The notes: generated by a model not told the origin, from the letters alone. A DNA stretch of 64,000 bases from a virus (IMGVR_UViG_3300014204_000013:13181-77180); one strand, 5' to 3'. Shown: positions 7,926-27,917, counted from the stretch's first letter. Translations and numbers: made by a program.

Positions 7926-10900
7926 TTAGGTAAATAAAGTCTGTTGCCTAGATTTCAACTGTAGATCCATCTCACTGATTCCAAAACATGAAAATATCCT
8001 GGTTAGTGGAGGAATAAGTTGTTTTTGGAGGTAATATTCGGTATCTATGGGTAGGTTGTGCTCCAATACATATTCTGGATCTTCGGCGCGGCTGGTCATA
8101 AGTTGCTTTCGCTTTCCGCTTTTCGGGCCGCTTTTGATGATGATGAAGGGTATTCTGTCACCTAGCACATACTTATGAATACCGCGAGCATCTAGTTTTT
8201 TCATCAGTTCTGCATGGGGTTGTACCTGGTTATAGTTTTCTGGGTTACGGGTTAGTGTTCTGGAAAGTATTAAATCTTTTAGGATTGTGTGATTGGATGA
8301 TTTTACATTTTGTAGAGCTGTCCTGGCATGATTCAATGCCAGGTCTACGTTACCTTCTATGAGAATTAGTTCCAGGCATTTAGTTAAAGTCATAGCGGTT
8401 AGGTTGCACCAATCGCGACGTACTGTTTCAATTCCTTTTGCCTTTATGATTCCTTTATCGGCGGTTTCAAATCGATACATCGCATAATGCTTTTTCGCTA
8501 CGATGAGAAGTCTTTTTGCAAACGCTTCGAAGACGAGTTCCATGGGGGCTGGGAGGCCTGCAGTTGCAATTGTAGCAATTTCTTTACCAATGCTTTTGGC
8601 GATGTTAAAATCAACTCCACCTTTAATGGATATAAAAATAGAATCGGTATTGTGTAATAATATTTGACCCATACTATCTACAAATGTATGTGCATCTTCC
8701 ACTGATAAATCATATACATAACAATTTGACGAGCATTCTGTTATATTGGTATGTGTTGCCATTTTGGATTTTCCACTCCATTCTCTGATTGTATATTCAT
8801 GCTTATCTTCTCTAAATTTTGTCCTGTATTTTACATTTAATATTGATAATAGTGTAGATATTCCACTAGCTAATCTGGTTGATGTGGTTGAATATTCAAA
8901 ATGTCCACTGATATTAATATATCCATCGCCTCTTACTAATTCATTGAACAATATCAGTTGATCTTTTGACTCCATATTAAATATAAAATCTGGTAGTTTT
9001 TTATTTTTAGATTCATGCCCACATAATGCATTAAAAAAATGAGCACTTGCCATATTCATCATTTGCAACTTACGAGTTTCATCTTTATATGGATTTCCAC
9101 CATTGATAGATCTAATTTTCTTTTGAGATTCGATTACACACGTTTTTACATTATTTATAAACATGTGGTAGATATTTTCCATTTCAAGTAACCAATTTAC
9201 ATCAGTGTCGCATATGGCAGATCCTATTTTAGATCCAAAAGATGCACTACCTTCTGTAATATATCCACATAACAGAATTCCCAGTTTAAGCAATTCATCC
9301 TGATTATAAAATCGTTGAATTGATATTTTGGTATTTTGTCCACCACCCAGTTTTATAGTGTTTTCATGCTTTACGAAATATCGATTCATGAATTTGTAAT
9401 CTTTAACATATTCCCATAAATCTATTTGTGTAATATGTTTATCGGATTTTGGTATATTGCATCTGTACATTTTAGTAAATTGCATTTCAGTTGGTTTGGT
9501 TTTGTTTAAATCGATATCCATAAATGAATGATCTTCTGTTGTTACAGATTCACCGAATTTTTGATTTACCCGATATATTTTTTTAGTTGTAAAATGTCGC
9601 ATAATAAAATTAATTGGCTTCCATCCCAAATGCGTTAAAGCGTTCATTTCTGAAACTATAGCATATTCTTTACCGTTATGTATTTCGATATCATCTGCGT
9701 TATTAAATAATTCTTCTACAGGGATTACTTTTATAATCTCATTTTCTTGAATTGTAATACACCTATCACCCACAATGCTATCTCCAGATACTACTTCTAG
9801 TTCGTACTTCTTTTCTTCTAATTCGAAGTTTGAATGTTCTTTCACGATACTTTTAGTTCTAAGTAGATTTTCTCTGCCATATGCTGTAACTGAGTTTGTG
9901 ATGATGGGTGAGAATAGTCTGGCTCGGGTGTAGCCCGAGTAACCGTAAATTGAATTTAGTAGGATCTTCATGGCATATTGTTTGGCATCCAGGGCATCTT
10001 TCTCCTCGGGGGTAGCTGCAGTTTTCATTGCAGTCTTGGCTGCCAGGCGTTCGGCTAGCAGGGTTTTGAGAATGCGAGGGACTATGCCTATGTAAGTGGA
10101 TTGGCTGACAAATTTTCCACCGCATGGGGTAGTTATGATGTCTCCGGGGGGTTGCTCATCTCGGATTTCGGTGCTGTAGCAGAGATTGTAGGCCATCATG
10201 ATGGTTGGGTATAGCGATTTGTAGTCAAGAATAACTACGTCCTCTGTAAGTCCTATTTTTGGATCAAGAACGATGGCACCTTTAATGGTTTCGGCTTCCG
10301 AAATGTCGTCATCTTCTAAGGCTTGTTTGGTTCCCATGACACGGTGTTCTTCTTTAAATGCTCTGGATATTCGGGCTTCAATCATATGAGATTGGCCGCC
10401 GTTGACAACCACTTGAAGAAATGCACCACTAGCCTTGGAAAGTGCGAAGTATTTATTCATGAATCCTAATTGTTTAACTAGCATCATGACTAACGTTGAA
10501 TCTCGTCGGGAATATGAGATGAATTTATTGATACCCGAACCTTCCCAGAGAGCACGCATCTCTCCGGGTTTTACATCAAGTTTTTCACTATGCAGGATTT
10601 CTTTTGCTACATTTTTTAGGCTGTAGGATTTTAGGCGATATTTGTCCATGGCTTTGATGGCCGGCAGGGTATCCAAGACAATTCTACCTCGAATGGATAC
10701 TTTGTATTTGCCCATGAAACTGGTACACCAGGCTGGTTTGCCATCCCGAGACATTCTTAGCTTAACTTCTAAGATTTTGGCTCTATCGGTTATATATGGT
10801 ATATCGAATCCAACTATGTTATGGCCTGCAACTATGTCAGGATCAAACTCATTTATGATGAAATCTAATTTTTTTAACATATCCTTTTCATTGTCGGAGC

Positions 10901-11552
10901 AGATCACATCAGGTCGTGGGCAATCGATATCTTTTGCAACCATTACAACGTTGTTTTGACCTCGCCATTGAGGGTCAAATTCCAAGCTGATTAAGACTAT
11001 GGAGTTTACGTCTGCAGTTGGGAATGAACCATCGTCTTTTGGGAGAGTTTCTATATCGATGGCCATTGTTTTTAACGGGGCATTCTTTTTTTCATCTACG
11101 GAAATTATGTCTTCGTGTGAGATGGTTGGAGAGTCGGGAGTTATCACCCAGCCTGCCCCGCTTATCCCGTGATCTATGGCGAATCGATCTGCGAAAAGTA
11201 CGTCACTTTCGTAAGTTGTGTAACCATCGGAGGTGCAAAAGTCGTTTAAGAGCTTTGTATCCTTTGGATTTTTGACCGTTACTTTGAGCATATTCCTGGG
11301 TTTCGACTGGAAACCAAGGGGTCTAAATCTTTTGACATCTTGGAAACGCATCTCGATTCCAATTGAATCTCCTAATGCAGATAAATATTTCTCAGCCTGG
11401 GTTGGTGATGGGTGGTCTATGTAGAAATAAGGTAAAAAGCCAGTAACTCGTTTTGTGATAGATGTGCCGTTTTCTGTTATGCCAAAAAGTACAATTACGG
11501 GAAATCCGTTAAAATCGTAATTGTAAGTGGCATCGAGGATCTGGAATTTCAT
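7926..11552 (-). CDS. polB: family B DNA polymerase (archaeal type) containing an intein
   Basis: Exo motifs AIDIET, GHNIVGFDIPY, YSRRD; pol motifs LDYKSLYP, KILLNSIYGY, SGD|TDS; AKGIETVRRDW. Confidence 0.95.
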   Translation of the reverse strand: MKFQILDATYNYDFNGFPVIVLFGITENGTSITKRVTGFLPYFYIDHPSPTQAEKYLSALGDSIGIEMRFQDVKRFRPLGFQSKPRNMLKVTVKNPKDTKLLNDFCTSDGYTTYESDVLFADRFAIDHGISGAGWVITPDSPTISHEDIISVDEKKNAPLKTMAIDIETLPKDDGSFPTADVNSIVLISLEFDPQWRGQNNVVMVAKDIDCPRPDVICSDNEKDMLKKLDFIINEFDPDIVAGHNIVGFDIPYITDRAKILEVKLRMSRDGKPAWCTSFMGKYKVSIRGRIVLDTLPAIKAMDKYRLKSYSLKNVAKEILHSEKLDVKPGEMRALWEGSGINKFISYSRRDSTLVMMLVKQLGFMNKYFALSKASGAFLQVVVNGGQSHMIEARISRAFKEEHRVMGTKQALEDDDISEAETIKGAIVLDPKIGLTEDVVILDYKSLYPTIMMAYNLCYSTEIRDEQPPGDIITTPCGGKFVSQSTYIGIVPRILKTLLAERLAAKTAMKTAATPEEKDALDAKQYAMKILLNSIYGYSGYTRARLFSPIITNSVTAYGRENLLRTKSIVKEHSNFELEEKKYELEVVSGDSIVGDRCITIQENEIIKVIPVEELFNNADDIEIHNGKEYAIVSEMNALTHLGWKPINFIMRHFTTKKIYRVNQKFGESVTTEDHSFMDIDLNKTKPTEMQFTKMYRCNIPKSDKHITQIDLWEYVKDYKFMNRYFVKHENTIKLGGGQNTKISIQRFYNQDELLKLGILLCGYITEGSASFGSKIGSAICDTDVNWLLEMENIYHMFINNVKTCVIESQKKIRSINGGNPYKDETRKLQMMNMASAHFFNALCGHESKNKKLPDFIFNMESKDQLILFNELVRGDGYINISGHFEYSTTSTRLASGISTLLSILNVKYRTKFREDKHEYTIREWSGKSKMATHTNITECSSNCYVYDLSVEDAHTFVDSMGQILLHNTDSIFISIKGGVDFNIAKSIGKEIATIATAGLPAPMELVFEAFAKRLLIVAKKHYAMYRFETADKGIIKAKGIETVRRDWCNLTAMTLTKCLELILIEGNVDLALNHARTALQNVKSSNHTILKDLILSRTLTRNPENYNQVQPHAELMKKLDARGIHKYVLGDRIPFIIIKSGPKSGKRKQLMTSRAEDPEYVLEHNLPIDTEYYLQKQLIPPLTRIFSCFGISEMDLQLKSRQQTLFT
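8649..9779 (-). mobile_element. intein (377 aa) with LAGLIDADG-type endonuclease in PolB motif C
   Basis: Starts SIVGDRCITI, ends ILLHN followed by Thr; CGYITEGS and NELVRGDG motifs. Confidence 0.92.
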
Positions 11553-12373: not shown

Positions 12374-12898
12374 TTACATCTCCGGAAAGTTTAGATGGGC
12401 GTATTTTCCATGGTATATTTTCTTAGCCGCATCTACGATGTGGGCAGCGTCATCTTCATTAGCAAATAGACCTAAGTAAATTGGTTTTCCGTTTTTTCGT
12501 ATTTGGGCGAACCATTTAGATCGATCTTTGTTCCAAGTTACTCCTTGATATTGACTCGACGTATGTGTGCCTTGTTTTCGACTATTCATGATATTTTGAG
12601 AATGTGTTGTAATTCTCAAATTATCAAGTGTGTTTTTTAGGCCATCGTGGTTGATGTGATCTATTTCCTCAGTTCTCAGCAGTGGCCTACCCAGTTTGGT
12701 TTCCATAATAACGCGATGCATACGAATGATCATACGTGTATTTTTTATAGATATCATACGTGCTGCATAATATCGATAATTTGATGCACGCCCTTCTTTT
12801 TTAGCATACCATTTATACTGATTTAGATATTCAAACTCGTCGTCTATTTGAGTTACCAGTCCAGAGGTTAATGAAAGTTCAATCATCTTTTTCCCCAA
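12374..12898 (-). CDS. HNH-AP2 homing endonuclease
   Basis: RMHRVI..DHINHDGLKNTLDNLR; SQYQGVTWNKDRSKW; paralogue of 106..633. Confidence 0.9.
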   Translation of the reverse strand: MGKKMIELSLTSGLVTQIDDEFEYLNQYKWYAKKEGRASNYRYYAARMISIKNTRMIIRMHRVIMETKLGRPLLRTEEIDHINHDGLKNTLDNLRITTHSQNIMNSRKQGTHTSSQYQGVTWNKDRSKWFAQIRKNGKPIYLGLFANEDDAAHIVDAAKKIYHGKYAHLNFPEM

Positions 12899-13194
12899 CC
12901 ACGAGCTTCAAAATCTTGGAAGCGTTCAAATGTATGTTGAATACCTAGTCGTAAGATATCTGCTGGCAGTACACCCAGATCGTAGCATAGTAACTCAATT
13001 TGTACAAGCGCATCTCCCAGCTCCAAAATTGCATTTGCTTTCAAAGCCGAAGTTTCTGCAGTGAAGATGCGAGCCTGCAGCAGCCCGTAAGCTACCAGGG
13101 CAAGTTCCTTGTTTAAAATGATGATTCGATCCTGTGGTGTTTTTTGATCTTTCTCCAAAAGATGAAGGGTCCTGGTTGTGCGTTCGAACATCAC
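12883..13194 (-). CDS. MazG-like nucleotide pyrophosphohydrolase
   Basis: LNKELA...ELGDALVQIELL all-alpha NTP-PPase motif. Confidence 0.7.
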   Translation of the reverse strand: MMFERTTRTLHLLEKDQKTPQDRIIILNKELALVAYGLLQARIFTAETSALKANAILELGDALVQIELLCYDLGVLPADILRLGIQHTFERFQDFEARGWGKR

Positions 13195-13909
13195 ACGCCC
13201 AAAAGAATGATTTTTTTATCAATGCTCTCACTGCATCGTAATCACGTTTATAGACATGTAGTGAATCATTTTTATCCACAATTCTGACGATTATGCAGTC
13301 GTTGGGGTCTATTACTTCGCGATAAAGCATGTCAATCAGTGCTATCAAATTGGATTGCCAGGCACCCCAGGCATCGCGAGATCTCCAATCAAAATGAACA
13401 GAAACCTTTCCATCACCTTCATGACGAATCCTTATACGCTGCAGACAGGGACTTGCGACGTTGCCCATATCTGCTTCTGGCTCCCAGGTGATAGCCTGAC
13501 TACGGTTTGATGAAATTCCGGTGCCTATTTGAACGGCTAGATCGTCTCTCATTGCTTGGAGCTGGTTGATGAATCCGTTGTACCTGGCAAGCCTATCGAA
13601 GTACATGTATGCGAATTTGGCATCTTCGGGTTTTAGATCATATTCTTTTAGATATGACCAGGTAAATTCGTTGCAGTACTGTTTTACCAGTTTGAATGGA
13701 TTATCGGGATGAATGCTCTTTTTTTCGATTTGTTGGATAGCATCTCCTTCTAGTATGATAGTTTGAACGGTATCTTTTGCTGGTTTTGGGTTGAATTTGT
13801 CTCCGAATACAATTTCTTTACCGAGACTGCAATTACGTAGTAGTTGAAGCCAGGCCTGGTTGAAGTTTAAAGATCGAACTTCATGGATGGGTGGTAATAT
13901 CGTTTCCAT
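12995..13909 (-). CDS. thyA: archaeal-type thymidylate synthase-like protein (natural end probably near 13190)
   Basis: SPCLQ catalytic Cys, RSRDAWGAWQSN, DSLHVY; last ~65 codons overlap MazG and look non-homologous. Confidence 0.8.
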   Translation of the reverse strand: METILPPIHEVRSLNFNQAWLQLLRNCSLGKEIVFGDKFNPKPAKDTVQTIILEGDAIQQIEKKSIHPDNPFKLVKQYCNEFTWSYLKEYDLKPEDAKFAYMYFDRLARYNGFINQLQAMRDDLAVQIGTGISSNRSQAITWEPEADMGNVASPCLQRIRIRHEGDGKVSVHFDWRSRDAWGAWQSNLIALIDMLYREVIDPNDCIIVRIVDKNDSLHVYKRDYDAVRALIKKSFFWACDVRTHNQDPSSFGERSKNTTGSNHHFKQGTCPGSLRAAAGSHLHCRNFGFESKCNFGAGRCACTN

Positions 13910-13927
13910 GAAGAAGATATTAGAGAG

Positions 13928-13955
13928 GGAACCTATTTAAAGGTTTTGATGGGTT
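13928..13955 (-). promoter_or_regulatory. conserved viral promoter (BRE/TATA), copy 1
   Basis: 28-bp exact repeat GGAACCTATTTAAAGGTTTTGATGGGTT; TTTAAATA on the minus strand ~25 nt upstream of the thyA ATG. Confidence 0.75.
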
Positions 13956-15436: not shown

Positions 15437-15676
15437 TTATTCCTTCATGGCATCACAGATACTATTACAGCAGTTACAAACGCTATCTGTTACCTGTTGA
15501 ATTGGACAAACTTCATCTGTGTCGTCATTTTGGGAAATGTAACCTGTTTTTTTAAGATGTTCTAGGCATTCCTCTACTATTTCGATAGGTAGTTTTATGT
15601 TATTTGCAATTTCTTCTACGGTTTTGCAGGACGATAGGGCGTTTATTACAATGTTTAGATCTTCTAGGGTAGCCAT
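15437..15676 (-). CDS. small winged-helix protein with Cys-rich C-terminus
   Basis: TVEEIANNIKLPIEIVEECLEHLKKTGYI; CNCCNSIC. Confidence 0.65.
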   Translation of the reverse strand: MATLEDLNIVINALSSCKTVEEIANNIKLPIEIVEECLEHLKKTGYISQNDDTDEVCPIQQVTDSVCNCCNSICDAMKE

Positions 15677-15692
15677 GAAAAAGAATAGGTTA

Positions 15693-15720
15693 GGAACCTA
15701 TTTAAAGGTTTTGATGGGTT
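15693..15720 (-). promoter_or_regulatory. conserved viral promoter, copy 2
   Basis: Identical 28-bp repeat to 13928..13955, same spacing to the ATG at 15676. Confidence 0.75.
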
Positions 15721-15819: not shown

Positions 15820-16650
15820 TTATGTAGTTACGTGTTTGTCATAATCTTTTAGGAAACTTCGTAGTTCAATCGGAGTTTTAAAAGAAATTTCGTCATCTTT
15901 CATAGATCCACCATATTTGAATAGTAAGTTATTGAATGTTTTGGTTTTGACAGATCCCGCATTGTTTTTGTCGTATCCTCGCGAATAAGATCCATCGGGA
16001 TATACCCATATTTTAATGGAATTTAGACTTGAGTAATCATTGTTTTTTATATTAGAATTGATAGTGTTAATAGCATTTTTAAATCCTTGATCAGTATCCT
16101 TCATTTCTGGATATAATACAGCTACGATTGCTTCAGTTGATAGTGTTGGGTTGTCTTTAATTAATTTAACTGCAGGTATGGCAATTTTACCAAACTTAAT
16201 AGATTGTTGTATATATGAGTCTGGAAATGTGAGAGTACCATTATTTATTATAAGACGATCACTGTTAACGCTCATCGTTTTTAATGGTGTATTTAATTTT
16301 GAAGGGAGCTTATATTTATTTACAATCGATTTGGGTTGAATCTGGTAGTTATCTGTAACTGTTTTGGATGGATTTTTAATTGTATTTAGATTTGATTTTG
16401 GAGTAATTGTTATACGGGCATTTTGTTTTACTACAGTGGATACGATAATTGGGTTTGCTTTAACTCCAGGAATTGGTGCTGAGGTTTTGATAGCTAAAGG
16501 TTTTAAACTAGGATTACGAGCCATGATACTAGATTGAGATTTAGTTGGAATAATCTTGGTAAGGGAAGACTTTTTAGTTGTACTGCCAACACGTACTGTT
16601 GATTTTGACGTTTTAGCTCCTATTTTAATTGTCATAGTAATAGATATCAT
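15820..16650 (-). CDS. hypothetical protein with the shared S/T/K/P-rich leader
   Basis: ARNPSLKP...KQNARITITP...KTMSV as in 6232..7893 and 17874..26462. Confidence 0.7.
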   Translation of the reverse strand: MISITMTIKIGAKTSKSTVRVGSTTKKSSLTKIIPTKSQSSIMARNPSLKPLAIKTSAPIPGVKANPIIVSTVVKQNARITITPKSNLNTIKNPSKTVTDNYQIQPKSIVNKYKLPSKLNTPLKTMSVNSDRLIINNGTLTFPDSYIQQSIKFGKIAIPAVKLIKDNPTLSTEAIVAVLYPEMKDTDQGFKNAINTINSNIKNNDYSSLNSIKIWVYPDGSYSRGYDKNNAGSVKTKTFNNLLFKYGGSMKDDEISFKTPIELRSFLKDYDKHVTT

Positions 16651-16699
16651 ATACGGATATATAAGCGTAATGGAATATATAGATTTTAAAAAAAAATAT

Positions 16700-17887
16700 C
16701 TAAGAAGTACTATTCAGAATAGCATCCCATGTTCGAAGATTTCCGATATTAGTAGGCACAACAAACTTAGCCCATAATGTTACCTCTGAACCATTTGCAG
16801 GCACGGATACTTGATATTGAGGCATTCCGGTGTATTCGAAATCACCGGAAGTTCCGTGAAGGATAACTCCCAACCATCCTTTCCATACAGCATTTCCACG
16901 ATTTCGGACTTTGTACCCGAACCATGTCTCTGCAGGTGGTGCCTTCACATAATTACATACAGGTGCTACCATTTCCAGTGTAGCAAGTTTGGTTGCAGGC
17001 GCGTTGTTGGATACACAACTGGATATCTGGACTCCAACCTGTTTTGCAACTATGGATTCAGCCTCGGGATTATATGTCTTAGCCTGGCCTTCCAAAATCA
17101 TAGTGTTGTTGATATTTATATCATCTGGATAATACACTTGGGCGACTTGACGGTTGTAAGAATCCATGCCTTTGATAACCAATCTAACTATAGAACCTGG
17201 GGGTATGTGCTCGCCAAGCCAGGTTTTAGCAGTTCTTCCGGATTGAAATTTTAATTCCGATGAGGATATGCCTTCCAGTCTAACCGTGAATTGAGTTGTT
17301 ACGCAAAGCTGTCCAACGGGACAAATTTGATTAGCTTCAAAGGTATCTCCATCTGTTATTGAGAGAACCCTGGCTGAAATAGTTGATCCGGTTACTGGTG
17401 TTACCATTGGTAGACTTGTTAAATATGTTCCTAAAGATTCATTTATATTTTCTGTACCCTTTGTAATTATGTACGAATTACCCATTGGTGTTAATGTTAC
17501 ATTTGAACCGATTGGTAAATGCAGATTTAAGTATGATTCTGCATCTACATCATTATCTTCGGTTGTTACAATTCCATATAATGTTATACTTTTAGGAGTG
17601 TAATCACATACGTTTCCTGATATGCAATCAAGCAGAACACTTACACTTGTTCCGCTATTTATTGCTACAATTCTAGCAGTTACTTCAATACCTGTTGTAG
17701 GGGGTATGTAGGTGCTACCCAATACTGAAAACATCCAGGATATATCATTAGAATTTACATCTGAGTCATTTTCTAAATCAGATTTGATTGCTTTAAGTAA
17801 TGCAGTTGAATTTATACGCCCAGTAGCAAAAAAATTATCGGATAGCCAGGATTTGCGAGTATCGGTTATCATTTTAGACACCTCCAT
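16700..17887 (-). CDS. staphylococcal-nuclease (thermonuclease) domain protein with a second, degenerate OB/SNase domain
   Basis: SITDGDTF, VRLEGISSSE, DSYNRQVAQVY, INNTMILEGQA; the earlier repeat lacks the catalytic DGDT. Confidence 0.8.
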   Translation of the reverse strand: MEVSKMITDTRKSWLSDNFFATGRINSTALLKAIKSDLENDSDVNSNDISWMFSVLGSTYIPPTTGIEVTARIVAINSGTSVSVLLDCISGNVCDYTPKSITLYGIVTTEDNDVDAESYLNLHLPIGSNVTLTPMGNSYIITKGTENINESLGTYLTSLPMVTPVTGSTISARVLSITDGDTFEANQICPVGQLCVTTQFTVRLEGISSSELKFQSGRTAKTWLGEHIPPGSIVRLVIKGMDSYNRQVAQVYYPDDININNTMILEGQAKTYNPEAESIVAKQVGVQISSCVSNNAPATKLATLEMVAPVCNYVKAPPAETWFGYKVRNRGNAVWKGWLGVILHGTSGDFEYTGMPQYQVSVPANGSEVTLWAKFVVPTNIGNLRTWDAILNSTS

Positions 17888-20800
17888 ATGCAGTAATTAA
17901 GTTTAATACATCGATAGCTGTAAATGTCCAGGTTCCGGTTATAGTAGGACTGGCTGCAGCTTTTGCTGCAGTAGCTAATGCATTGTCAGATTGAGATATC
18001 GCATATGCATATACGATATGATCTGGATTCAGCGCATTATCCCCACCAACTGCATTTATAAATTGCTCTGCTTTGGTTAAAGTGGTTCCAGAGGATGGGT
18101 AAAGGGTGACAGATTTACGAGCTATGCTTCCGGCGTAAACTTGTACAGGGATCGTATATGACTTGTAGCCAGACTTTTGGATGGTTACGGTATGAACTCC
18201 TGCTTCGACCTCAATTATTACGTCTGTGTCGCCTATCTTTGCACCATTTTCATAGACTTCAGCACCCAGGCCTGCGGTGTCGATGAAGATTCCGGTTTGG
18301 CCGGTTGATTTGGAGTATGAGCTTCCACCGCTCTTTGAAGAATATCCGCTACCACTACCGCCACTTTTTGATCCGGTAGATGAACAGTTGTAAGTACATG
18401 CCCAATTATCTTCTTTTGATAAGAAACCTGTTATGTCTTTTCCACCGCTATTTATGTATTCTGCATATTTTCCTGTATCTAGTGTGTATTCTGCACCTCC
18501 CTCAGATGACTTCTTTTGGTTGATATCATATTGGCCTGTTACTGGATTTAGCAGTTTTCCACTTTGAATTATGCTTGAAGTGTGTGGATATCCAGTATCA
18601 TCTATCCAAGATACCGTATTACCGGATGCAGTCAATTTAAATTTGGATGGATCATTTTGCCTAGCAGTAAATGCAGCAGCTTGGGCTGCCGGCATAAATT
18701 GCTCTATTCTGGCACCAGAGTCAACCATTCCATTGGCTTTGTACTCATTGATTTTTTTAGCTAACTGTTCGGGATCACTTATAGTAGCTAAATCCGCAGC
18801 AACCATTTTATTGATTGCTTCTGCTGGAAATAAGGCTTTCATTTGGGCTGCTGTCATGTCTGGGTATGCTGTTTTGAGTTTTGCTGCATCTAAACTCCCA
18901 TCTGGCTTAATAAATGCAGATCTCCAAACCTGAGCATCACCAGGCTGGGTGCCTCCGAAAGTTGCATATCGTGTCAATGCATCCATTGTAGTTGGAGCTA
19001 CAGCTATTGTAGCCGTTTGATCAGAATTTAAACCAGTTAATGCTGTTCCTGGGGATGCACCAGTTGGGGGTAATGTTCCATCTTTAGCAGTGAGTGCTTT
19101 AGTATAAGCTTGTAATGCCATTTCAGATGTTGCCCCGCCCTTTACGACCTGGGCGTAAGCTGCACTAAAATCGTCCGTTAAAATCTTTTTGGCACCTTGG
19201 TTAGCGGCTGCCTGCATATGTCCCAGACCTACTTGAACTGCCAAAGCTGGGTCCGTTATGCCAAGACCCTGAGCGATCATATTGTTTGGGCCTATACTCC
19301 CGTCCGGTTGGATATCATAGACTCTACCAGTGAAATCTGCATCCCAATATTGAACTTTATCGGGGTTGGCTGCAAAATAAGCTGGCCATTCGCTTTCTGG
19401 ACGAATTTTACCCCAACATCCAGGACCTTGGGTACATCCTACGTCTGGTATCCATAGACCAGCATTGGTGATTTTTCCGAGTTTGTCTTTTATTTGTGCG
19501 TTTGCTGCATAATCCATGTACCATTTGAAACCAATAGCTGCAGGAAACAGCATGGAAAAACCAGGGATATTTTCCAATGCCCAATCAAATGGAGCAAGCA
19601 TATCATTTATTTTATTCATTGCGGGTAGACCAGTTTCATTCATCTGTTTGGCAAATTGATCTATAGGTGAATTGAATCCAACCATCTGAATCAAAGACTG
19701 GGTGCCTTCTTCTGCAGCGAAGTAAATGAAGAATGCACCGTTTACTGCTAAATAAGTTGCTACTACCCCAGTTACTGCTCTTAGTTTATGAGTGGCTACC
19801 CATTTAGCTGCTTTTCCAGCAGATCCGATTACAGTTCCTCGAATGAACCTACTGAATGTGCTTCTGGGCAATGTTGCTTGAATTTCGGCTAGTTTTTCCA
19901 TATCTTCGATAGTGTAGATCCGTTTGGTGTAAAGCTGATCTACGAAATCTTTAGCGCCTTTACTTAGGTTTGCAAATTTTGGATCGGATTTTACAGATGC
20001 GATAATTGCATCTTGAGCAGCCTTTTGGAATTGAGTTGCAACGTCTGGATTGATATCGTAAACTTTATTGAAAGCTTCATCTGCAAATTTTTCATCTTTC
20101 AATGCAGTTTTGACATCGGTATCTGATAGCAACTTTCGAAGCTCTGATGTTTTGTCTGCAATAGATGAATCTAATATGCTGTTGATCTTCATTCTTCCAA
20201 GATCGGAGCTTACTGATATCCCCTCATAGGCTTTTGCATTATCAAATATACGTTCCATTTGCTGGTAATCCGTTTGACTGAGTGCTCTGGTCTTTGCTTT
20301 GCTTATTAGTTCTTGATCAGATCTTGTCATCTTTGTGATGGTACTATCTGTAATACGATTAGCAGCACCCTGGTAGTTAAGGCCCATGATCTTTTCTGCC
20401 TGGGAGCGATCACTGCCGAGCTTTGATGCAATTTTGGATGCTAGATCTTCTGCTTCTGATCGGGACATGTTTTGAATTGTCTCGATAAGGGCTTCATCTT
20501 TGGATATTAGGTTTTCAAATGCCTTTTTACCTTCTGAAACTGGTAAATTGTTTAATTCGGTAAGCAATTCGTTGATTTTACCAGTACCTGTTCTGATGTT
20601 GGATGCTTTGGCCTTTGAGATAGCCAAATCGTCCCATTGGGCTTTATTATATGCTTTAAGTTTAGATTCTGCTGCAGTCAGCCTTCCTTTGGCAGCTACT
20701 TTTTCAGCAGCCAAAGCTTTGTTTTTTGGATCTGCGGATGCCTTTGCTGAAGCTGTAGCGTAATCATCGCTAAGTTTAGCTACCTCGTCTGCTGAATTGA

Positions 20801-23800
20801 TGATATTAGATCTGGTTGCTTCAAGCTTTGCTGCAGCTTCAGAATATTCAGATGCTAATGTAGTCGGGGATATTGTTTCGGAAATAGTCTGGGGTATTTC
20901 TTGTACGGCAGGTTCTGGTATTATTTCTGTTTGTATTGATTCTTCTGGTGATGATCTGAGATTGTCGATCATGTTTGATCGGGATTCATCTAAATATTTT
21001 GTGAGATATGGTAGATCATCGCCTGATAGGTTCCGTATTTCGTTAGCATTGGATTCTATGAATGTTCTAAATTCATCTGCACCCAGGGCCTGGATATCTG
21101 TGCCGGCCAGGCCTACAACTCGGATGGCATCACGTTCAATTACGTTCACGGTTTTTCCGAGCTGGAAAGCTCCGGATTTGCTTGCTTCTCGAACTGTGCT
21201 CCAAACTAGACCGCTGGGGGTCATGAGATCGATTTTAACGAACTCTTGAGTCATGTCGCTGGTTAAACCACCAGAACTGGTTAGACCTGACCATTCTGCC
21301 TCTGAAGCAGCATATGGGTCAGCCTTAGTGATAGATATGACTTTGCTTCCATCTGCATCTGCTGGTATTTGGAATTGAGTTTGAACATTGGTTGGTTTTT
21401 CCCAGAAGTACATATCGATTGGTTTTACTGCAAAGTTGATTGCTTCGTCTGCAGTAGTTATTAGATCGCTTTTTCGGATAAATGAAATTGATCCTTCTGG
21501 TGATTTAACTATCCAACCGGGAAGTTTTTTGTATGTATATTCGACAGCTAGAGCACCATCACTTCCTGCAGTAAATACGCCACTGTTGAATGATTTGGCA
21601 AATGCAGTTTCCATAGTCGATGATGTAGGTGATTTTGGGGTTGAAATTAGGATGTCACTATACTTGTTATTTCCAAGTACCAATTCAGCCAGTCCATAAT
21701 CTGAATTTTGCGAAGTCCACCAGGTGGGCATTTCGGATATGAGAGATTTGGCTGATTTAAGGGCTTCTACGATTTTGTCCCAGGTTTGGGTTGCTTGGAG
21801 AGTCCAGGACCCTTTCAAAGAGTTGAATTTATTTAACAGGTTTGAAATGGTACTAGGTTCTCCTGCATAATATCCTAGTTCGGCTTGGATGATATTTTTG
21901 CTTTCATCTGGGATGGTGGTGTATTCATCCATAGCAAGCAATTTTCCAATGTTCTCTTCAGCTTTGGTTTGATGAACGATTATTTCTTTTTCAGGTGGTA
22001 GACCGGATAATTTGATTTCTGAATCCGACATCTGGCTAATTGCATCTCTATTGCCAGTTACCATGTTTTCGAAATCATTCATTGGCATGAGATTGGCTGA
22101 AGTTTCTCCTCCGGTAGCTGCATCGAAGGCTGCCTGGCCCTCTGGTGACATTTGAGATCTGAGGAATTGTGCTCGGGATATCTCGGCTTCAGTTAGAGAT
22201 TCACCGTTCTTGGCTTTGACTAGAATCTGGGTGTCTGATTCGGATTTTATGATTCGGTCAAAGTCAGAAGTTTGCACAAATTGGTCCCAGGCGCTTAGGG
22301 TTTGTTCGGCACCACCAGTCCTGGTTGCCACTTGAGCAACTGAATTATCATAGGCATACTGCAGGTTTGGAACATATGATGAATAATCTGATGGGGTTTG
22401 ATAGGTTGAAACTTGCGTTGGGGTGGGTGTATTTCGGGCAGCAAGGTATGCAGCATATTCATCTGGTGTTTGTCTTACATTGGTATATGGGTTTAGGATT
22501 GAGAATGTTCCATCAGAATTCTTAAAGTAGTAATATCCTTCTGGGTTCCAGATGGGTGTTTCTGCCGATCCGATTAGCTTAACATAGACATCTTTTTCCA
22601 GCCAGTTTCCAGTCTGTGGGTCCATGTATTGGACTGCCTTAGTAGCATCGTTGGTTCTGATTCTGGCATTATTCATAGAGCTGTCTACGCCATATGTGAA
22701 TGTTGGGTTGTTGAGTGCGATGGCGGCCCGTTCTGCGTCTAACTGGGCCTTTGTCACCCAACCCCCTGCAGAGTCCTGGTACATGGTTACGTCATATAAT
22801 CCCGTAGTTGGATTTTTAGTTAGTTTGGTGTAAGTATTGGTGGTTGCATCATATTTGGCTCTGCGGGCTTCATTACGGGTGGTTAAGAGTGATTCGTACT
22901 CTTTGGTAGACATTATTGCACTGGTTTCGGGATCTTTAACTTCCCACGTTTTTCCACCATCTAGACTGCGGATTTCAGCTCCCCAATCCGAATTCATGGT
23001 CCAGGTTGAGTAATCTGTTGCCCCAGTGGTAGTTCCTCCACTATAACCTTCACTACCGCCCATTCCTCCACTGCCTTCTCCACCCATGCCGCCGCTACCT
23101 TCCCCATACATATCTTCGGCCCTGGCTGCCCATTCTGCTTCTTCAGAGGCTAGAGTGGGTTCCGCACCATTGGATGCTATTTTAGTTTCATAGTCGGATT
23201 GAGCTGCGGCTTGCTTAATTTCGTCAGTGAGTGTTGCGGTAGGAGCTTTAACTGATACTGTTCCTTTAAGTCCAGATTCCGGATCCGCCCAGGATACATG
23301 AAATACGTTATCAGCTTCATTTACGGACGAAGTTAATTTTACAACACTTGCATGCCCAGTTTCATCTACTTCTTGTACACTCAATATTCCTTTTACATTT
23401 GGATCATAGTCTTCAGCAACGGAAAGGAATCTAGGGTTGGTTTTACTGCCATAGTTGATGTATTTTTGACCATCGGCACCTCTATATACACCTTGACCGA
23501 GATCTTCTGTAAGTTGTATATCATTTGCAGTTAATGGTTTGTATTCTGTAGGACTACTTCCATATTTTGCAACATCTTTTGCAATAGACTCTTCTAATTG
23601 TTTTAGTGATGCTGCAGTGGTTTCACTTATGCTTTTGGTTGGTGTAACTGTCGATGTAGATTGTTTAACTTTAATTTTTCCATCAGGACCCATTTCCAAA
23701 GTAGCCTTGGGTGTTTCGAATTTGGTGGATTCAGATGATATTGTCTTGGTTTTTGGGGTTCTAGAAAGATCAGATTCGATATCAAAGGTTTCTTTACCGA

Positions 23801-26462
23801 TGGTTGCTTTAATTTTAGAAGTTGCAGGGTCTATTGACGCTTTGCCTACTTCTATTCCATTTTCTAATATTTTTCCTTCTCGGGTTAATTCTAATGCTTT
23901 TGCAGCCAGTTTTCCAGTAGTGGTGACTGGTTTCATTGGAATTAATCCAGCTAAAACTAGGTTTGCACCAGGACTTAGTGTTACTGCGTCATAGAATAAT
24001 GAAATCGCATCAATAGAATGTGCATTTCCAAAATCTTCCATATTTTCAAAGGTATTTATGTTAAATCGAAGATCTGGATTGTTTGAATTTAAGTCTCGGT
24101 TATATTGTTCTAATTCGGTTTTACTCATGGCACTTTGGATAACTGGTTCAAATTTATCACCCAATTCCTGGGAGATTTTATTTCTCAATTGAGTATCGGT
24201 TGATGCTCCTAATAGAACTCTCGGATTGCTTTTTGCAATTTTATCTAAATCAGATGCACTTGCAGATTTGATTGCATCTGAAAATATCTCATATGAAGTT
24301 ACTCCACCTACAGACGGGATATTTCTAAGGGATACGCCGGGTGCAGTTAATTGTTTAAGAATCATGTCCTTTGCAAGTATTCCTTCTACAGTATCCTGTA
24401 ACTCATATCCATTTGGGTATTCTGGTCTATTTACTTTTCCGAATAAATTGCCTAGATAGGATACGGTTTTTCCTATGATACTTGTATCTTGTGATTCCGC
24501 TGCTTGTTTTTGGGCAGCCGTTAGAGGAACAATTTTACCAAGTCCTGCCTGTACCATTCTTTCTTCATATGGTAGGAGCGCAGTTTTAGCTTCGGTTATA
24601 AGACTACCAGGTTCCCCGAAATCTGCAACTGGAACACTTGCAACGGGCGCGGTGGCTATCTTTTCAAGTACTTTTGTACCCAAATCGGCGGTTTCGGCTT
24701 CGGTAAGTCCAATAAATTTGGCTTTGGCTAATGCCCATTCAGGTACTGCAGTAGGTATATTATTTGAATTTTTTACAACTGTAGGTTCTACATAAAATAG
24801 GCTTTTATCGATTACTGCATCTGGTCTATATGATTTTAAATCTAATGTGATTTTTCCAGTTTCTTTTCCCGCATTAACACCTGCGCCGCTTCCTAATGTT
24901 TGTGGTACTATTCCCATTTTTCCACTGGCCATCGCAGTGGCCATTTGGGTATCAGACCAACCAGTGGCTTTTAATGAAGTATATACGTCTGGATCAACTT
25001 TAACAATTGTTCCAGTACTAGATTTTATCGATATTGCGTTTTTAATAGTTGATTTTGATGATATTACATCATTTCCAATTGAGCCTGTGTTATCAAAATC
25101 CAATGCTCCTGCAGCTTGGGCTTCTGCTTTAGTTCTTGCATCTTTTTGAGCTTGGGTTTCGGGTTCTGCTTTTTTAGTAGTGCTGGGTTTGGATGGTGCT
25201 TTAGTTTTATCATTGGTAATAGATCCGGGTGGGTTAGCTGCAGGAATGGCATCTGATTTTCCAGAACTTTTCTTAATGTCTTGAATGGTTTTTTCTAACG
25301 GGGTTGGATTTACCAAATCGAATCCGGGTATATTCATTGATTCAGTTCCACCCACGCTCATGATACCCAATTTGGTTTTACCGGCTTCTATTCGGGCATT
25401 GGCTGCAGCAGTCGCACCATTTTTGACAATGCTCGACAATTTTGATATTAGGGCTTCGTGGTCATTCTTGACCGTGGCATCCGATGCAATTTTCATGTTT
25501 ATTACGTTATCATTTGCCACTGAAGCTACGGTTTTTAGATTTCGTGCATCTGACGTAGATGCCGCCTTTTTCATTCCAGACGTAACCAAATTCGATATGG
25601 ATTTTATTGCATTTATTGCGGTTATATTGTTTACCTCATTGGTAGCAACGGATTTAGTGGTAATTGTGTTAATTCTAGCCTTTGATAATGTGGATAAAGA
25701 GGATAGTTGTGGAGCAATGAGCTGATTAAAATTCTCTGAAGCGTTTTGACCACTTAATGCCTTTGCCACTATGGAATTTATTTTAGCGGTAACATCTTCA
25801 TTGTCTGCTATTTTTGCACCATTTACCCAATTAAGGTCAGTACGACCTGCAATAGTAGCTGATGCTTTGTTTGCAACGTCTACTATTTTTTTAACTGTAT
25901 CGTTGATGGTGGGTGATAATGTGGGAATTGTAACGGTTGGTGTGTTAAGTAAGCTATTGGTGGGGATGGTTGTTATTTTAGGAGCAGATGCTTTTGATTC
26001 TGCTAATATAGCTGCAAGGGTTTGAGTTACAGTCGGTGCGGGTGGTTTGACAGGTTCAACTACTCCGGGTACACTGGATAGCTGAATTGCTATTGGTTTA
26101 ACTGAAACTGGTGATAAATTTTCCTGTAAAGTAAGATTGGTTCGAGCATTACTAACTTGTACTGCTGTTTGTAAGGTTTTATTTACTACTACAGATGGGA
26201 TAGGAGTTGGTGTTTTTACCGTAGTAAGAGGTTTTAAACTTGGATTACGATCAATTAATGTTTGCTGCGCCGAGGATACCGACGCGGTGGGTGTAGGAAC
26301 TAACCTAGTCTGTGTAACGTATGATACACCAGAAGGAGCAGCTACTGCAGGCCTGGAAACCGCAGGTGGATTATATACCGATACAGGAGTTGAAGATTTA
26401 ATTCCAGAGGACCCGCCAATGGAAACTGTAGCTCTGGATCCTCCACTAAGTTGGATTACCAT
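17874..26462 (-). CDS. giant 2862-aa protein: low-complexity leader, helical middle, hydrophobic segment, C-terminal PEGA domain
   Basis: Uninterrupted ORF; TM-like LRAVTGVVATYLAVNGAFFIYFAA (~19705-19785); PEGA-like GIFIDT..GAEVY..G..IG....GVHTVTIQKSGY (~18105-18300). Confidence 0.8.
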   Translation of the reverse strand: MVIQLSGGSRATVSIGGSSGIKSSTPVSVYNPPAVSRPAVAAPSGVSYVTQTRLVPTPTASVSSAQQTLIDRNPSLKPLTTVKTPTPIPSVVVNKTLQTAVQVSNARTNLTLQENLSPVSVKPIAIQLSSVPGVVEPVKPPAPTVTQTLAAILAESKASAPKITTIPTNSLLNTPTVTIPTLSPTINDTVKKIVDVANKASATIAGRTDLNWVNGAKIADNEDVTAKINSIVAKALSGQNASENFNQLIAPQLSSLSTLSKARINTITTKSVATNEVNNITAINAIKSISNLVTSGMKKAASTSDARNLKTVASVANDNVINMKIASDATVKNDHEALISKLSSIVKNGATAAANARIEAGKTKLGIMSVGGTESMNIPGFDLVNPTPLEKTIQDIKKSSGKSDAIPAANPPGSITNDKTKAPSKPSTTKKAEPETQAQKDARTKAEAQAAGALDFDNTGSIGNDVISSKSTIKNAISIKSSTGTIVKVDPDVYTSLKATGWSDTQMATAMASGKMGIVPQTLGSGAGVNAGKETGKITLDLKSYRPDAVIDKSLFYVEPTVVKNSNNIPTAVPEWALAKAKFIGLTEAETADLGTKVLEKIATAPVASVPVADFGEPGSLITEAKTALLPYEERMVQAGLGKIVPLTAAQKQAAESQDTSIIGKTVSYLGNLFGKVNRPEYPNGYELQDTVEGILAKDMILKQLTAPGVSLRNIPSVGGVTSYEIFSDAIKSASASDLDKIAKSNPRVLLGASTDTQLRNKISQELGDKFEPVIQSAMSKTELEQYNRDLNSNNPDLRFNINTFENMEDFGNAHSIDAISLFYDAVTLSPGANLVLAGLIPMKPVTTTGKLAAKALELTREGKILENGIEVGKASIDPATSKIKATIGKETFDIESDLSRTPKTKTISSESTKFETPKATLEMGPDGKIKVKQSTSTVTPTKSISETTAASLKQLEESIAKDVAKYGSSPTEYKPLTANDIQLTEDLGQGVYRGADGQKYINYGSKTNPRFLSVAEDYDPNVKGILSVQEVDETGHASVVKLTSSVNEADNVFHVSWADPESGLKGTVSVKAPTATLTDEIKQAAAQSDYETKIASNGAEPTLASEEAEWAARAEDMYGEGSGGMGGEGSGGMGGSEGYSGGTTTGATDYSTWTMNSDWGAEIRSLDGGKTWEVKDPETSAIMSTKEYESLLTTRNEARRAKYDATTNTYTKLTKNPTTGLYDVTMYQDSAGGWVTKAQLDAERAAIALNNPTFTYGVDSSMNNARIRTNDATKAVQYMDPQTGNWLEKDVYVKLIGSAETPIWNPEGYYYFKNSDGTFSILNPYTNVRQTPDEYAAYLAARNTPTPTQVSTYQTPSDYSSYVPNLQYAYDNSVAQVATRTGGAEQTLSAWDQFVQTSDFDRIIKSESDTQILVKAKNGESLTEAEISRAQFLRSQMSPEGQAAFDAATGGETSANLMPMNDFENMVTGNRDAISQMSDSEIKLSGLPPEKEIIVHQTKAEENIGKLLAMDEYTTIPDESKNIIQAELGYYAGEPSTISNLLNKFNSLKGSWTLQATQTWDKIVEALKSAKSLISEMPTWWTSQNSDYGLAELVLGNNKYSDILISTPKSPTSSTMETAFAKSFNSGVFTAGSDGALAVEYTYKKLPGWIVKSPEGSISFIRKSDLITTADEAINFAVKPIDMYFWEKPTNVQTQFQIPADADGSKVISITKADPYAASEAEWSGLTSSGGLTSDMTQEFVKIDLMTPSGLVWSTVREASKSGAFQLGKTVNVIERDAIRVVGLAGTDIQALGADEFRTFIESNANEIRNLSGDDLPYLTKYLDESRSNMIDNLRSSPEESIQTEIIPEPAVQEIPQTISETISPTTLASEYSEAAAKLEATRSNIINSADEVAKLSDDYATASAKASADPKNKALAAEKVAAKGRLTAAESKLKAYNKAQWDDLAISKAKASNIRTGTGKINELLTELNNLPVSEGKKAFENLISKDEALIETIQNMSRSEAEDLASKIASKLGSDRSQAEKIMGLNYQGAANRITDSTITKMTRSDQELISKAKTRALSQTDYQQMERIFDNAKAYEGISVSSDLGRMKINSILDSSIADKTSELRKLLSDTDVKTALKDEKFADEAFNKVYDINPDVATQFQKAAQDAIIASVKSDPKFANLSKGAKDFVDQLYTKRIYTIEDMEKLAEIQATLPRSTFSRFIRGTVIGSAGKAAKWVATHKLRAVTGVVATYLAVNGAFFIYFAAEEGTQSLIQMVGFNSPIDQFAKQMNETGLPAMNKINDMLAPFDWALENIPGFSMLFPAAIGFKWYMDYAANAQIKDKLGKITNAGLWIPDVGCTQGPGCWGKIRPESEWPAYFAANPDKVQYWDADFTGRVYDIQPDGSIGPNNMIAQGLGITDPALAVQVGLGHMQAAANQGAKKILTDDFSAAYAQVVKGGATSEMALQAYTKALTAKDGTLPPTGASPGTALTGLNSDQTATIAVAPTTMDALTRYATFGGTQPGDAQVWRSAFIKPDGSLDAAKLKTAYPDMTAAQMKALFPAEAINKMVAADLATISDPEQLAKKINEYKANGMVDSGARIEQFMPAAQAAAFTARQNDPSKFKLTASGNTVSWIDDTGYPHTSSIIQSGKLLNPVTGQYDINQKKSSEGGAEYTLDTGKYAEYINSGGKDITGFLSKEDNWACTYNCSSTGSKSGGSGSGYSSKSGGSSYSKSTGQTGIFIDTAGLGAEVYENGAKIGDTDVIIEVEAGVHTVTIQKSGYKSYTIPVQVYAGSIARKSVTLYPSSGTTLTKAEQFINAVGGDNALNPDHIVYAYAISQSDNALATAAKAAASPTITGTWTFTAIDVLNLITAYGGV

Positions 26463-26560
26463 TACTTTTTCTCCTTAGCGAGGCGTTTTAATGCTTCTTT
26501 GAGATCCTTATCCACTTGCTCATTGGCCTTTCTTGCAGCTTCCTTCAGGTCTTTATCCAT
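26462..26560 (-). CDS. 32-aa charged helical micro-protein
   Basis: MDKDLKEAARKANEQVDKDLKEALKRLAKEKK; TAATG stop/start overlap with the giant ORF. Confidence 0.5.
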   Translation of the reverse strand: MDKDLKEAARKANEQVDKDLKEALKRLAKEKK

Positions 26561-26690
26561 GTCAATCACTTATCCAACCATTGTATCTAAGAACTATAAA
26601 TAGAAGCAACATAGATAAGTCTTATGCAAATAAAAGTGCAATGTGGACCCATTGAAATGGTAGAGATGCCCCAACTTCGCGATTTCGGAG

Positions 26691-27917
26691 GTGAAGACGA
26701 TGCCAGAAACCGATCTGACAGACCTGAGTTACCCGAGTGAGGATATTCTTGCCATCGATAGTAAGATAGATGCTTTGGCAAGACAGTGGCTGGTTAGGAT
26801 TCAGACCAATTTTTGGCAGTTCGATGCTGCAGTTAGAACCAGGGTTACTTGGTTTAATGATCAGCACTACAACCCATTAAAAATTTATGAGGGGATTCAA
26901 GATCATTATCTGGCATTGCTTGCGGATTTGAATAAGTTTAAGCAATTTCTTGATGATAACGGATTTCCTAAGACGAGTTCATATTACAATTATTATAATG
27001 CGTATGCTCTTTATTATCAAGGATATGCAGATGTCGCAAAGCCTCCTGCATTGGTTCAAGAGGAATTAGATAGAGGAAAGTTAGTTGGGATCTGTGACAA
27101 AGTTGATGACGGTGATACCATATTTGTAGATGGTAAAGAAGTTAGATTGGCCGGCATCAATTCTCAGGAAAAGGGAACCTTCCGGGGAGCTGGCCAGGCC
27201 ACCCAGCGCATGAGAGAACTGGCACTTGGAAAGACGGTAACAGTATATTTTGACCCGAACACGCCGCTGGAGATGTACCGTAGGGTACTGGGTGCAGTAT
27301 ATCTTGGAGATGGGGATCGCGAAGATTTATTTACCAGATCAGATTGGAAAGAAATATTCCTGAACTACATCATGGTTAATGAGTGCCTGGCTGAGCCTAA
27401 TGATAAGGGTAGAAACATGTACATCGATCCAGACATGATCAAAGGGGCCTGGCAGAAATGTAAGCTTGCTGATTCTCCAGACATGGTTAGAGTTCACTTC
27501 AAATCTACACCCACTCATGCCAGGTTATATGTCGATGGTAAGGACATGATGACAGCTACTCCTGATTTTGTGGATCTATCGCCAGGTAAGCATCATTTTG
27601 TGCTGGCTGCGGAGGGCTGCAGCGCCTGGCATGAGGATATCGAAGTTGGATTTGGAGATAACAAGATTTTCCGTAAGCTTATGCCATTACCAGTAGCAAA
27701 CGGAATGATTAGTGTCTTTACTACACCGGATGACTGCGATATCATAATGAATGATATGCCGCAGGGAATTGCGCCTTTGATTGGAGTTCAGATGATCGCG
27801 AGTGCCCCGGTTGTAATTGTGGCGGTAAAAGAAGGATATGAATCTAAAACGATAAGCATTGTCCCAATGGCAGGCCGAAACATTGATGTAACCTTTGACC
27901 TACTCCAAAAGATTTAA
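26691..27917 (+). CDS. thermonuclease (SNase) with two C-terminal PEGA domains
   Basis: VDDGDTI, VRLAGINSQE, MYRRVLGAVY; FKSTPTHARLYVDG and VFTTPDDCDIIMN PEGA repeats. Confidence 0.85.
   Translation: MKTMPETDLTDLSYPSEDILAIDSKIDALARQWLVRIQTNFWQFDAAVRTRVTWFNDQHYNPLKIYEGIQDHYLALLADLNKFKQFLDDNGFPKTSSYYNYYNAYALYYQGYADVAKPPALVQEELDRGKLVGICDKVDDGDTIFVDGKEVRLAGINSQEKGTFRGAGQATQRMRELALGKTVTVYFDPNTPLEMYRRVLGAVYLGDGDREDLFTRSDWKEIFLNYIMVNECLAEPNDKGRNMYIDPDMIKGAWQKCKLADSPDMVRVHFKSTPTHARLYVDGKDMMTATPDFVDLSPGKHHFVLAAEGCSAWHEDIEVGFGDNKIFRKLMPLPVANGMISVFTTPDDCDIIMNDMPQGIAPLIGVQMIASAPVVIVAVKEGYESKTISIVPMAGRNIDVTFDLLQKI

Follow-up and report, generated by a model that had tools for sequence, protein, structure and literature searches.

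Among described systems, the nearest parallel to the locus analyzed here is, by analogy only, VP1 of the viruses SH1 and HCIV-1. The VP1 of SH1, a structural protein of very large size, is associated with the lipid vesicle (PMC6441041). That of HCIV-1 reaches at least residue 1608 and is counted among the putative vertex-complex proteins (PMC4958249). Our locus resides on a stretch of 64,000 nucleotides, in the following termed the window, which comprises bases 13181-77180 of the IMG/VR virus record IMGVR_UViG_3300014204_000013. This record of 77,180 bp carries direct terminal repeats, with a 123-bp exact repeat found in it, and is rated complete. The subject of our study is a gene for a giant protein, which alone accounts for 11% of the 77-kb genome, and its two flanking genes SN1 and SN2, which code for proteins with staphylococcal nuclease (SNase) or SNase-like domains:

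17874-26462, minus strand: giant gene (P0001), 2862 residues, with a module A (residues 1-~1865) that by homology appears fused to a module B (residues ~1865-2862)
16700-17887, minus strand: SN1 (P0002), 395 residues, with an N-terminal helical region, a putative degenerate OB/SNase-like repeat, an SNase domain and a putative C-terminal beta domain
26691-27917, plus strand: SN2 (P0003), 408 residues, starting with a nearly invariant N-terminal domain (residues 1-125)

All three open reading frames (ORFs) were found at the positions given in a preliminary description of the window. What is new in this locus is the conserved order SN2, giant, SN1, the occurrence of a form in which modules A and B are split, the restriction of the core of the giant to one lineage and the expression signals of its operon. 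In the alphasphaerolipoviruses SH1, HCIV-1, HHIV-2 and PH1, which are tailless membrane-containing archaeal viruses, VP1 is very large, evolves fast and is more conserved in its C-terminal part, and the giant is similar in these properties (PMC6441041, PMC4958249). Unlike VP1 of HCIV-1, the giant does not contain PCNA domains, and it is known here from genes alone. A tblastn search of 50,697 GenBank phage and archaeal-virus records with the giant gave no match at an E-value of 0.01 and thus no similarity to VP1 of the SH1/HCIV-1 type, although the inclusion of SH1 and HCIV-1 in this collection is unconfirmed. Polyvalent giant virion proteins of phages were reportedly treated by Iyer et al. in 2017. 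The giant resembles such proteins as a multidomain viral protein, and weak structural matches of its core in BFVD are of that type. It differs from them by the absence of any detected enzymatic effector domain, as searches of Pfam, PHROGs and NCBIfam (the latter without any match) gave a PEGA domain and a borderline match to DUF4197 only, and by the fact that the nucleases are separate genes.

The arrangement of the three genes is not due to chance. For its characterization, we have fetched eight related loci from IMG/VR, six from JGI metagenomes and two on contigs of metagenome-assembled genomes (MAGs). A metagenome scan with one protein had provided six loci, and both a metagenome scan with an alignment and a scan of viral contigs with a single protein returned nothing. 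The order SN2, giant, SN1 is kept in every locus that contains the respective flank (12 on the side of SN2 and 10 on the side of SN1, distributed over two clades), and the linkage between giant and nucleases that the preliminary description had pointed out thus extends to its relatives. Across the two clades the giants share 41-65% of their residues. In total we found 33 homologues of 1800-3650 residues, and a profile of the core retrieved no more than nine cluster representatives from 1.84 billion proteins, each of them belonging to this lineage, as do all detected SN2 homologues. Downstream of SN1, the related loci contain an ORF of 248 residues followed by nucleotide genes and a polymerase.

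On the evidence of homology, the giant combines two modules that exist as separate adjacent genes in the closest clade, a fusion that the preliminary description had not noticed. This clade was defined by other genes, with ~71-73% identity in SN2 and ~85-86% in the capsid-sized ORF 34451-35632. In its members, a gene A of 2515 residues is followed by a gene B of 1111 residues that starts 2 nt past the stop codon of A, and SN1 comes after gene B and overlaps its end. The direct succession of A and B is found in five contigs. Gene A of the split form extends into a tail of ~370 residues, containing a coiled-coil-like stretch, a Gly/Ala-rich hydrophobic segment (Kyte-Doolittle 1.8) and a terminal motif, which is absent from all fused giants. 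The joint is located at about residue 100 of B in the giant of the window and at about residue 33 in the IMG/VR clade, and the difference in these positions implies that fusion or fission has occurred more than once. The repeated appearance of split and fused forms in turn argues strongly that modules A and B act together as one unit. Among relatives, which reside on contigs of up to ~85 kb, the length of the giant ranges from ~2700 to 3650 residues (3626 for the split pair).

Within the giant, the following regions were distinguished:

25863-26462, minus strand: variable N-terminal region rich in Ser, Thr, Pro and Val (residues 1-200), delineated by composition and low conservation
23043-25037, minus strand: first conserved half of module A (residues 476-1140), with the borderline DUF4197 match at residues 724-812
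23059-23106, minus strand: Gly-rich linker with two copies of EGSGGMGG, a 24-nt x 2.0 tandem repeat
20973-23042, minus strand: most conserved core (residues 1141-1830), from an AlphaFold2 model
19863-20870, minus strand: start of module B, a charged stalk and presumed coiled-coil (residues 1865-2200), assigned by composition and homology to gene B of contigs L025 and L026
19458-19865, minus strand: predicted long helical bundle with two hydrophobic helices (residues 2200-2335), followed by a C-x5-C motif at residues 2343-2349
18099-18293, minus strand: PEGA domain (residues 2724-2788), assigned by Pfam and fold match
17883-18074, minus strand: small C-terminal helical domain (residues 2797-2860), highly conserved and modelled with a predicted local distance difference test score (pLDDT) of ~90

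The EGSGGMGG repeat and the PEGA domain near the C-terminus, both noticed before, are confirmed. The linker is retained in relatives, and the C-x5-C motif is invariant in 12 of 12 aligned module-B sequences. With 32.7 bits, the PEGA domain exceeds the Pfam cut-off of 20.8 (PF08308), and a check of its beta-sandwich fold, which covered the copy of the giant, identified the transthyretin-like domain of carboxypeptidase D as a clear match (Z 8.7, root mean square deviation 1.7 Å over 69 residues, Foldseek probability 1.0). The number of PEGA copies in the giant family varies from one to three (the latter in the relative P0009), as would be expected for a distal binding array. Other proposed features fared less well. 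The N-terminus does not contain any hydrophobic stretch that would qualify as leader. A hydrophobic segment is present as the sole Kyte-Doolittle peak of the protein, although it is marginal (residues 2230-2250, mean 1.6) and placed by the model inside a soluble-looking helical bundle. We have rejected a classical transmembrane protein, and the suggested membrane-spanning apparatus for delivery or ejection remains hypothetical.

In its AlphaFold2 model (pLDDT 76), the core folds into four beta-hairpin-plus-helix repeats, a helical domain and an alpha/beta domain. A Foldseek search with the core did not find any PDB entry at an E-value of 0.001, a wider structure search gave generic helices (best Z 6.7), and the best row in BFVD, of the minor capsid protein type, combined an E-value of 4e-4 with a TM-score of only ~0.1. 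Judged from this model, the ~700-residue core constitutes a conserved family without match to a solved structure. Residues 2200-2862 (pLDDT 75.5) are predicted to form the helical bundle, a helical domain, a small beta domain, a Gly/Ser linker, PEGA and the well-defined C-terminal helical domain. In fold searches with this region, PEGA was the only part with a clear relative, and the matches of the bundle, including designed nanopores and Cry/PirB toxins, did not exceed Z 9.5, which is below the level that is meaningful for helices. These searches were carried out with multi-domain segments instead of single domains. For residues 476-1140, a protein-atlas feature search gave scores of at most 0.78 and nothing useful. 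By conservation and modelling combined, ~1350 residues of the giant are assigned to conserved globular domains.

Close to its N-terminus, the giant carries the motif RNPSLKPL ... NAR, which recurs N-terminally in ORFs 15820-16650 and 6232-7893 (both on the minus strand), with the shared region extending over ~60 residues (E-values of 1e-7 and 1e-3, respectively). In giants of the IMG/VR clade, RNPSLKP-type motifs are repeated 2-4 times, and the split clade contains a different short motif, which is also repeated. The recurrence of one motif in the giant and in two further ORFs points to a docking partner that they have in common. ORF 15820-16650 looks like an insertion, and tblastn did not find a match to it in any of the fetched loci that cover this flank. 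The similarity of ORF 6232-7893 to a transglutaminase-like cysteine protease is weak (E 0.006).

The domains of the two flanking proteins are distributed as follows:

17057-17395, minus strand: SNase domain of SN1 (residues ~165-277)
27078-27440, plus strand: SNase-like domain of SN2 (residues 130-250)
27483-27686, plus strand: first PEGA domain of SN2 (PEGA1), 26.4 bits in Pfam at a cut-off of 20.8
27693-27914, plus strand: putative second PEGA domain of SN2 (PEGA2), sub-threshold in Pfam

SN1 is, as described, an SNase protein that comes next in the operon. Its relation to the SNase family (PF00565, COG1525 YncB, PHROG 452) is evident from a Pfam match of 31.1 bits at a cut-off of 21 (residues 202-273), a match to phrog_452 'endonuclease' (E 1e-10) and ~30% identity of its SNase to genes of two jumbo phages of Ralstonia, RP12 and RP31, that code for SNases and are annotated as nucleases. 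The assignment of SN2 as SNase-PEGA-PEGA protein is firm for PEGA1, and its other two domains remain below their Pfam cut-offs. The SNase domain is not detected by Pfam in the copy of the window and is sub-threshold in five of five relatives (best E 0.006), although SN2 matches phrog_452 (E 8e-6), a homologue with 49% identity bears a precomputed PF00565 match, and JGI terms its homologues 'endonuclease YncB (thermonuclease family)'. An hhalign comparison of SN2 with SN1 aligns their motifs (E 0.002, probability 13%), and searches of PDB sequences with SN1 and SN2, as single sequences and as profiles, did not find any SNase. PEGA2 scores 12.4-19.9 bits, with an E-value of 0.15 in the window and down to 7e-4 in relatives, and is the best family match in four of four sequences and the sole one in three, covering profile positions 2-67 of 71. 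The ORF of SN2 was called from a GTG at 26691, and its true start is likely the ATG at 26700, which is preceded by GGAGGTGA at ribosome-binding distance.

Both SNase domains keep the motifs DGDT, R-L-x-G-I...E and Y-x-R, which we take to be the equivalents of Asp21, Arg35, Glu43 and Arg87 in the numbering of the S. aureus enzyme, and from this pattern they are clearly under selection. The equivalent of the calcium ligand Asp40, whose substitution the preliminary description had likewise not mentioned, is replaced by Ser in eight of eight SN1 sequences (GISSSE or GVSSGE), with the other four equivalents being present, and by Asn in SN2 of the window and five clade-mates (GINSQE), and it is Asp in the other clade (GIDSAE). 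Both proteins further depart from the SNase family by the absence of signal peptides, by the fusion to lineage-specific N-terminal domains and PEGA or Ig-like beta-sandwiches, and, in SN1, by a second, apparently degenerate SNase copy with a C-x5-C loop that was, as was the C-terminal beta domain, assigned from an alignment. Similarly, the PEGA domain of the giant and PEGA1 of SN2 conform to their family (PF08308, transthyretin-like carboxypeptidase regulatory domain) in score and, for the giant, in fold, but they are found here on virus proteins without secretion signals and, in the giant family, in one to three copies. The proposal that the proteins share PEGA domains holds at the family level, and it does not extend to close kinship (BLASTP E 0.22, hhalign E 0.36). 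The SNase copies, too, are related at the level of their family only, and we have rejected a recent duplication of PEGA or SNase domains among the three proteins.

The operon of the giant is framed by elements that were identified in its flanking sequence:

26594-26605, minus strand: TATA-box-like element TTCTATTTATAG, ~35 nt upstream of a 32-residue ORF, putative promoter
26462-26560, minus strand: predicted 32-residue ORF, charged and helical, whose stop codon overlaps the start of the giant (TAATG)
16688-16696, minus strand: T9 run, 4 nt past the stop codon of SN1, candidate archaeal terminator

In the split-form contig L025, the TATA-like element is found at equal distance and a 33-residue counterpart of the small ORF, which could encode a leader peptide or a small partner, at the same location. 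The start of SN1 overlaps the stop of the giant by 14 nt, and use of Met6 as start would instead place it 1 nt behind that stop. T-runs follow SN1 in L004-L011 and a promoter motif in L025 and L026. By these signals, the TATA box, the 32-residue ORF, the giant and SN1 form a self-contained operon that is closed by a T-run, with SN2 being divergent. Because a T-run or the next promoter motif follows SN1, the module appears separate from the nucleotide and replication genes downstream. A scan for bacterial-type promoters and terminators did not reveal any enrichment. A near-identical promoter-like motif, ATCAAAACCTTTAAATAGGTTCC, which stands at the head of several operons and is also present after SN1 in L025 and L026, is found at 13910-13950, 15677-15720 and 57094-57130, upstream of ORFs 12995-13909, 15437-15676 and 56311-57093, and may mark one temporal gene class.

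The genome provides the setting in which the module has to be understood. It codes for a family-B DNA polymerase (PolB, 7926-11552) and a helicase (2323-4917), each interrupted by inteins, and it contains dCMP deaminase and thymidylate-synthase-like (ThyA-like) genes. The best matches of the polymerase are to haloarchaeal viruses at 27% identity, a TATA-like box lies ~26-32 nt ahead of the start codon at most operon heads, and genes end with T-runs. Based on this combination of features, the virus is probably a divergent archaeal virus. Its host is probably a methane-cycle archaeon. Its DNA is present in metagenome runs of one landfill and two of groundwater, and no RNA run was listed among those that contain it. 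A genome scan for relatives returned only two contigs, L012 (JBAZIT010000029.1) and L013 (JBBACV010000185.1), which are filed in bacterial MAGs (Omnitrophota and Acholeplasmataceae), probably as the result of a binning error rather than as a host signal. An NCBI record labels an SN2 homologue as 'PEGA domain-containing protein [Candidatus Omnitrophica bacterium]'. In Pfam and PHROGs scans of the ORFs tested, we did not find terminase, portal, HK97 capsid, tail tube, chaperone or other tail genes, although very divergent tail genes are possible, and we are thus dealing with a large virus without detectable tail or terminase genes among these ORFs.

Concerning the function of the module, we tentatively favor its association with the virion, with the giant as a scaffold that has a PEGA tip and carries SN1, and that acts in contact with the host envelope, in entry or in release, a role that we consider possible while giving it somewhat less than an even chance. 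The giant would be anchored to the particle or a membrane through its repeated motifs and hydrophobic helices and present PEGA at its far end. SN1 would be made in step with the giant and dock on its C-terminal part, and SN2 would be a second particle-bound protein, in which an N-terminal anchor of invariant sequence precedes an SNase-like domain and two PEGA domains. The three proteins would jointly attach to the envelope or matrix of the host and cleave DNA at that site, either on entry or on release. By analogy, such a module would parallel the enzymatic spikes of tailed phages. The near invariance of residues 1-125 of SN2 and the larger variation of its PEGA domains are the pattern of binding proteins that are anchored to a particle. 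The usual site of action of SNase enzymes is outside cells and none of the three proteins contains a signal peptide, and a role outside would therefore require either carriage by the virion or release by lysis.

The docking of SN1 was addressed by modelling its complex with residues 2611-2862 of the giant. The model provides weak support, with a score of 0.59 (0.55-0.64 in different runs) compared to 0.00 for the best control, an agreement between runs in at least 40% of contacts and a partner pLDDT of at least 65. When the score was calibrated, 58 of 80 solved complexes came up to the mark, compared with 2 of 110 mismatched pairs, and at scores up to 0.60 only 7 of the 80 solved complexes passed, together with both mismatches. 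Given a fair prior, which follows from translational coupling and fixed adjacency, we regard the score as a mild plus.

Several observations weigh against the virion-associated scaffold. The three proteins are placed in the particle by inference, and the tailless, double-jelly-roll nature of the virus is itself a tentative assignment. The complex score lies where a pass is more likely to be wrong than right, unless the prior is good. The core of the giant lacks an informative fold match, and its hydrophobic helices are marginal and modelled as part of a soluble bundle. Neither SNase domain of this virus contains the canonical equivalent of the calcium ligand Asp40, which makes a DNA-cutting role uncertain. 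Finally, the operon adjoins replication and nucleotide-metabolism genes on the same strand.

The latter proximity would find an explanation in an intracellular, non-structural takeover module, in which SN1 and SN2 degrade host or competitor DNA, the giant serves as cytoplasmic scaffold (e.g. of a replication or assembly compartment) and none of the proteins is packaged. Such a module would account for the absence of signal peptides in all three proteins and the ThyA-like, dCMP deaminase and PolB genes that the operon abuts, and it would be in line with the RP12 and RP31 genes resembling the SNase of SN1, which are annotated simply as nucleases. We nevertheless consider it unlikely. The T-run and a separate promoter motif part the operon from the nucleotide genes, and beta-sandwiches of the PEGA and Ig-like type, with a variable number of PEGA copies, are found in binding modules more typically than in cytoplasmic nucleases. 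In addition, SNase enzymes yield 3'-phosphates, which are poorly suited to nucleotide salvage.

Distinctly unlikely in our view is a role of the giant as a skeleton for capsid assembly, or a 'tape measure' that sets the size, of a large, tailless, icosahedral virus, analogous to PRD1 P30, PBCV-1 P2 and ASFV M1249L, with the nucleases as neighbors of separate function. Its extended regions with repeated short motifs would then dock on capsomers or membrane proteins. The repetition of short linear motifs in Pro/Thr-rich extended regions, one of which opens two other ORFs, would fit this role, as would the long charged stalk with the hydrophobic helices, the variation in length among relatives (~2700-3650 residues) and the fact that tail genes were not found in the ORFs tested. 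The known capsid tape measures of such viruses are extended, unlike the giant with its ~1350 residues in conserved globular domains. The C-terminal PEGA array and the tight coupling to SN1 would be left unexplained. A more far-reaching version of the virion-associated module, which we consider improbable, would be a new entry device that replaces the tail in a large tailless archaeal virus, where, upon contact, the giant two-module protein would insert its hydrophobic helices, sheltered until then, into the host membrane, PEGA would hold the envelope and the attached SNase-type proteins would act at the site of entry.

Two further proposals hardly survive. A conventional tape measure of a head-tail virus, to which the giant is alike in its size, helical stretches and hydrophobic helices and for which one very weak PHROG match to a tail assembly chaperone (E 0.075) could be quoted, is largely refuted and was rejected as highly improbable in view of the lack of terminase, portal, HK97 capsid, tail tube or chaperone genes in the ORFs tested, of neighbors that are nuclease-like and nucleotide-metabolism genes instead of tail genes, of models that are not wholly helical and contain beta-hairpin repeats, globular alpha/beta and beta domains and PEGA, and of the failure to match any of the 50,697 phage records. 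The preliminary description was thus right in setting the giant apart from a standard tape-measure gene, and its converse, a conventional tape measure with nucleases that are unlinked in relatives, was checked and applies in neither part. The surface-displayed or secreted competition system that it had offered as alternative, with cell-type nuclease toxins on a giant adhesin, could refer to the presence of PEGA in surface-layer-like proteins (Pfam description) and to the frequent secretion of SNase enzymes, but it is scarcely credible for proteins without signal peptides or secretion genes that are encoded by a complete 77-kb virus genome with direct terminal repeats and whose giant and SN2 homologues found all belong to this virus lineage.

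The remainder of the window contains additional features of note. An HNH-AP2 homing-type endonuclease is present in two copies (106-633, plus strand, and 12374-12898, minus strand) that are 48.5% identical and, with its inteins and homing-type endonucleases, the genome is rich in selfish elements. Two tandem paralogues of 263 residues (35642-36433 and 36446-37237, plus strand) share 70% of their residues, and L023 and L025 show one tblastn-matched region for both. A protein of 347 residues (39888-40931, plus strand), with a match to DUF1565 (E 2e-6), presumably a right-handed beta-helix family, and a weak PHROG match to a tail fibre, is a candidate for a receptor-binding or depolymerase spike.

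Very little is known of large archaeal viruses without tails from methane-rich habitats, including the way in which they attach to their hosts and open them. The giant module described here is kept in every relative and offers parts that are amenable to experiments, namely two nuclease-like enzymes, a binding domain and a split or fused pair that marks interacting modules. If its proteins are located on the particle, they would represent a new design of a spike or anchor and one of the few cases in which SNase-type proteins are carried by virions. Otherwise, the module would constitute a new intracellular scaffold for the takeover of the host.

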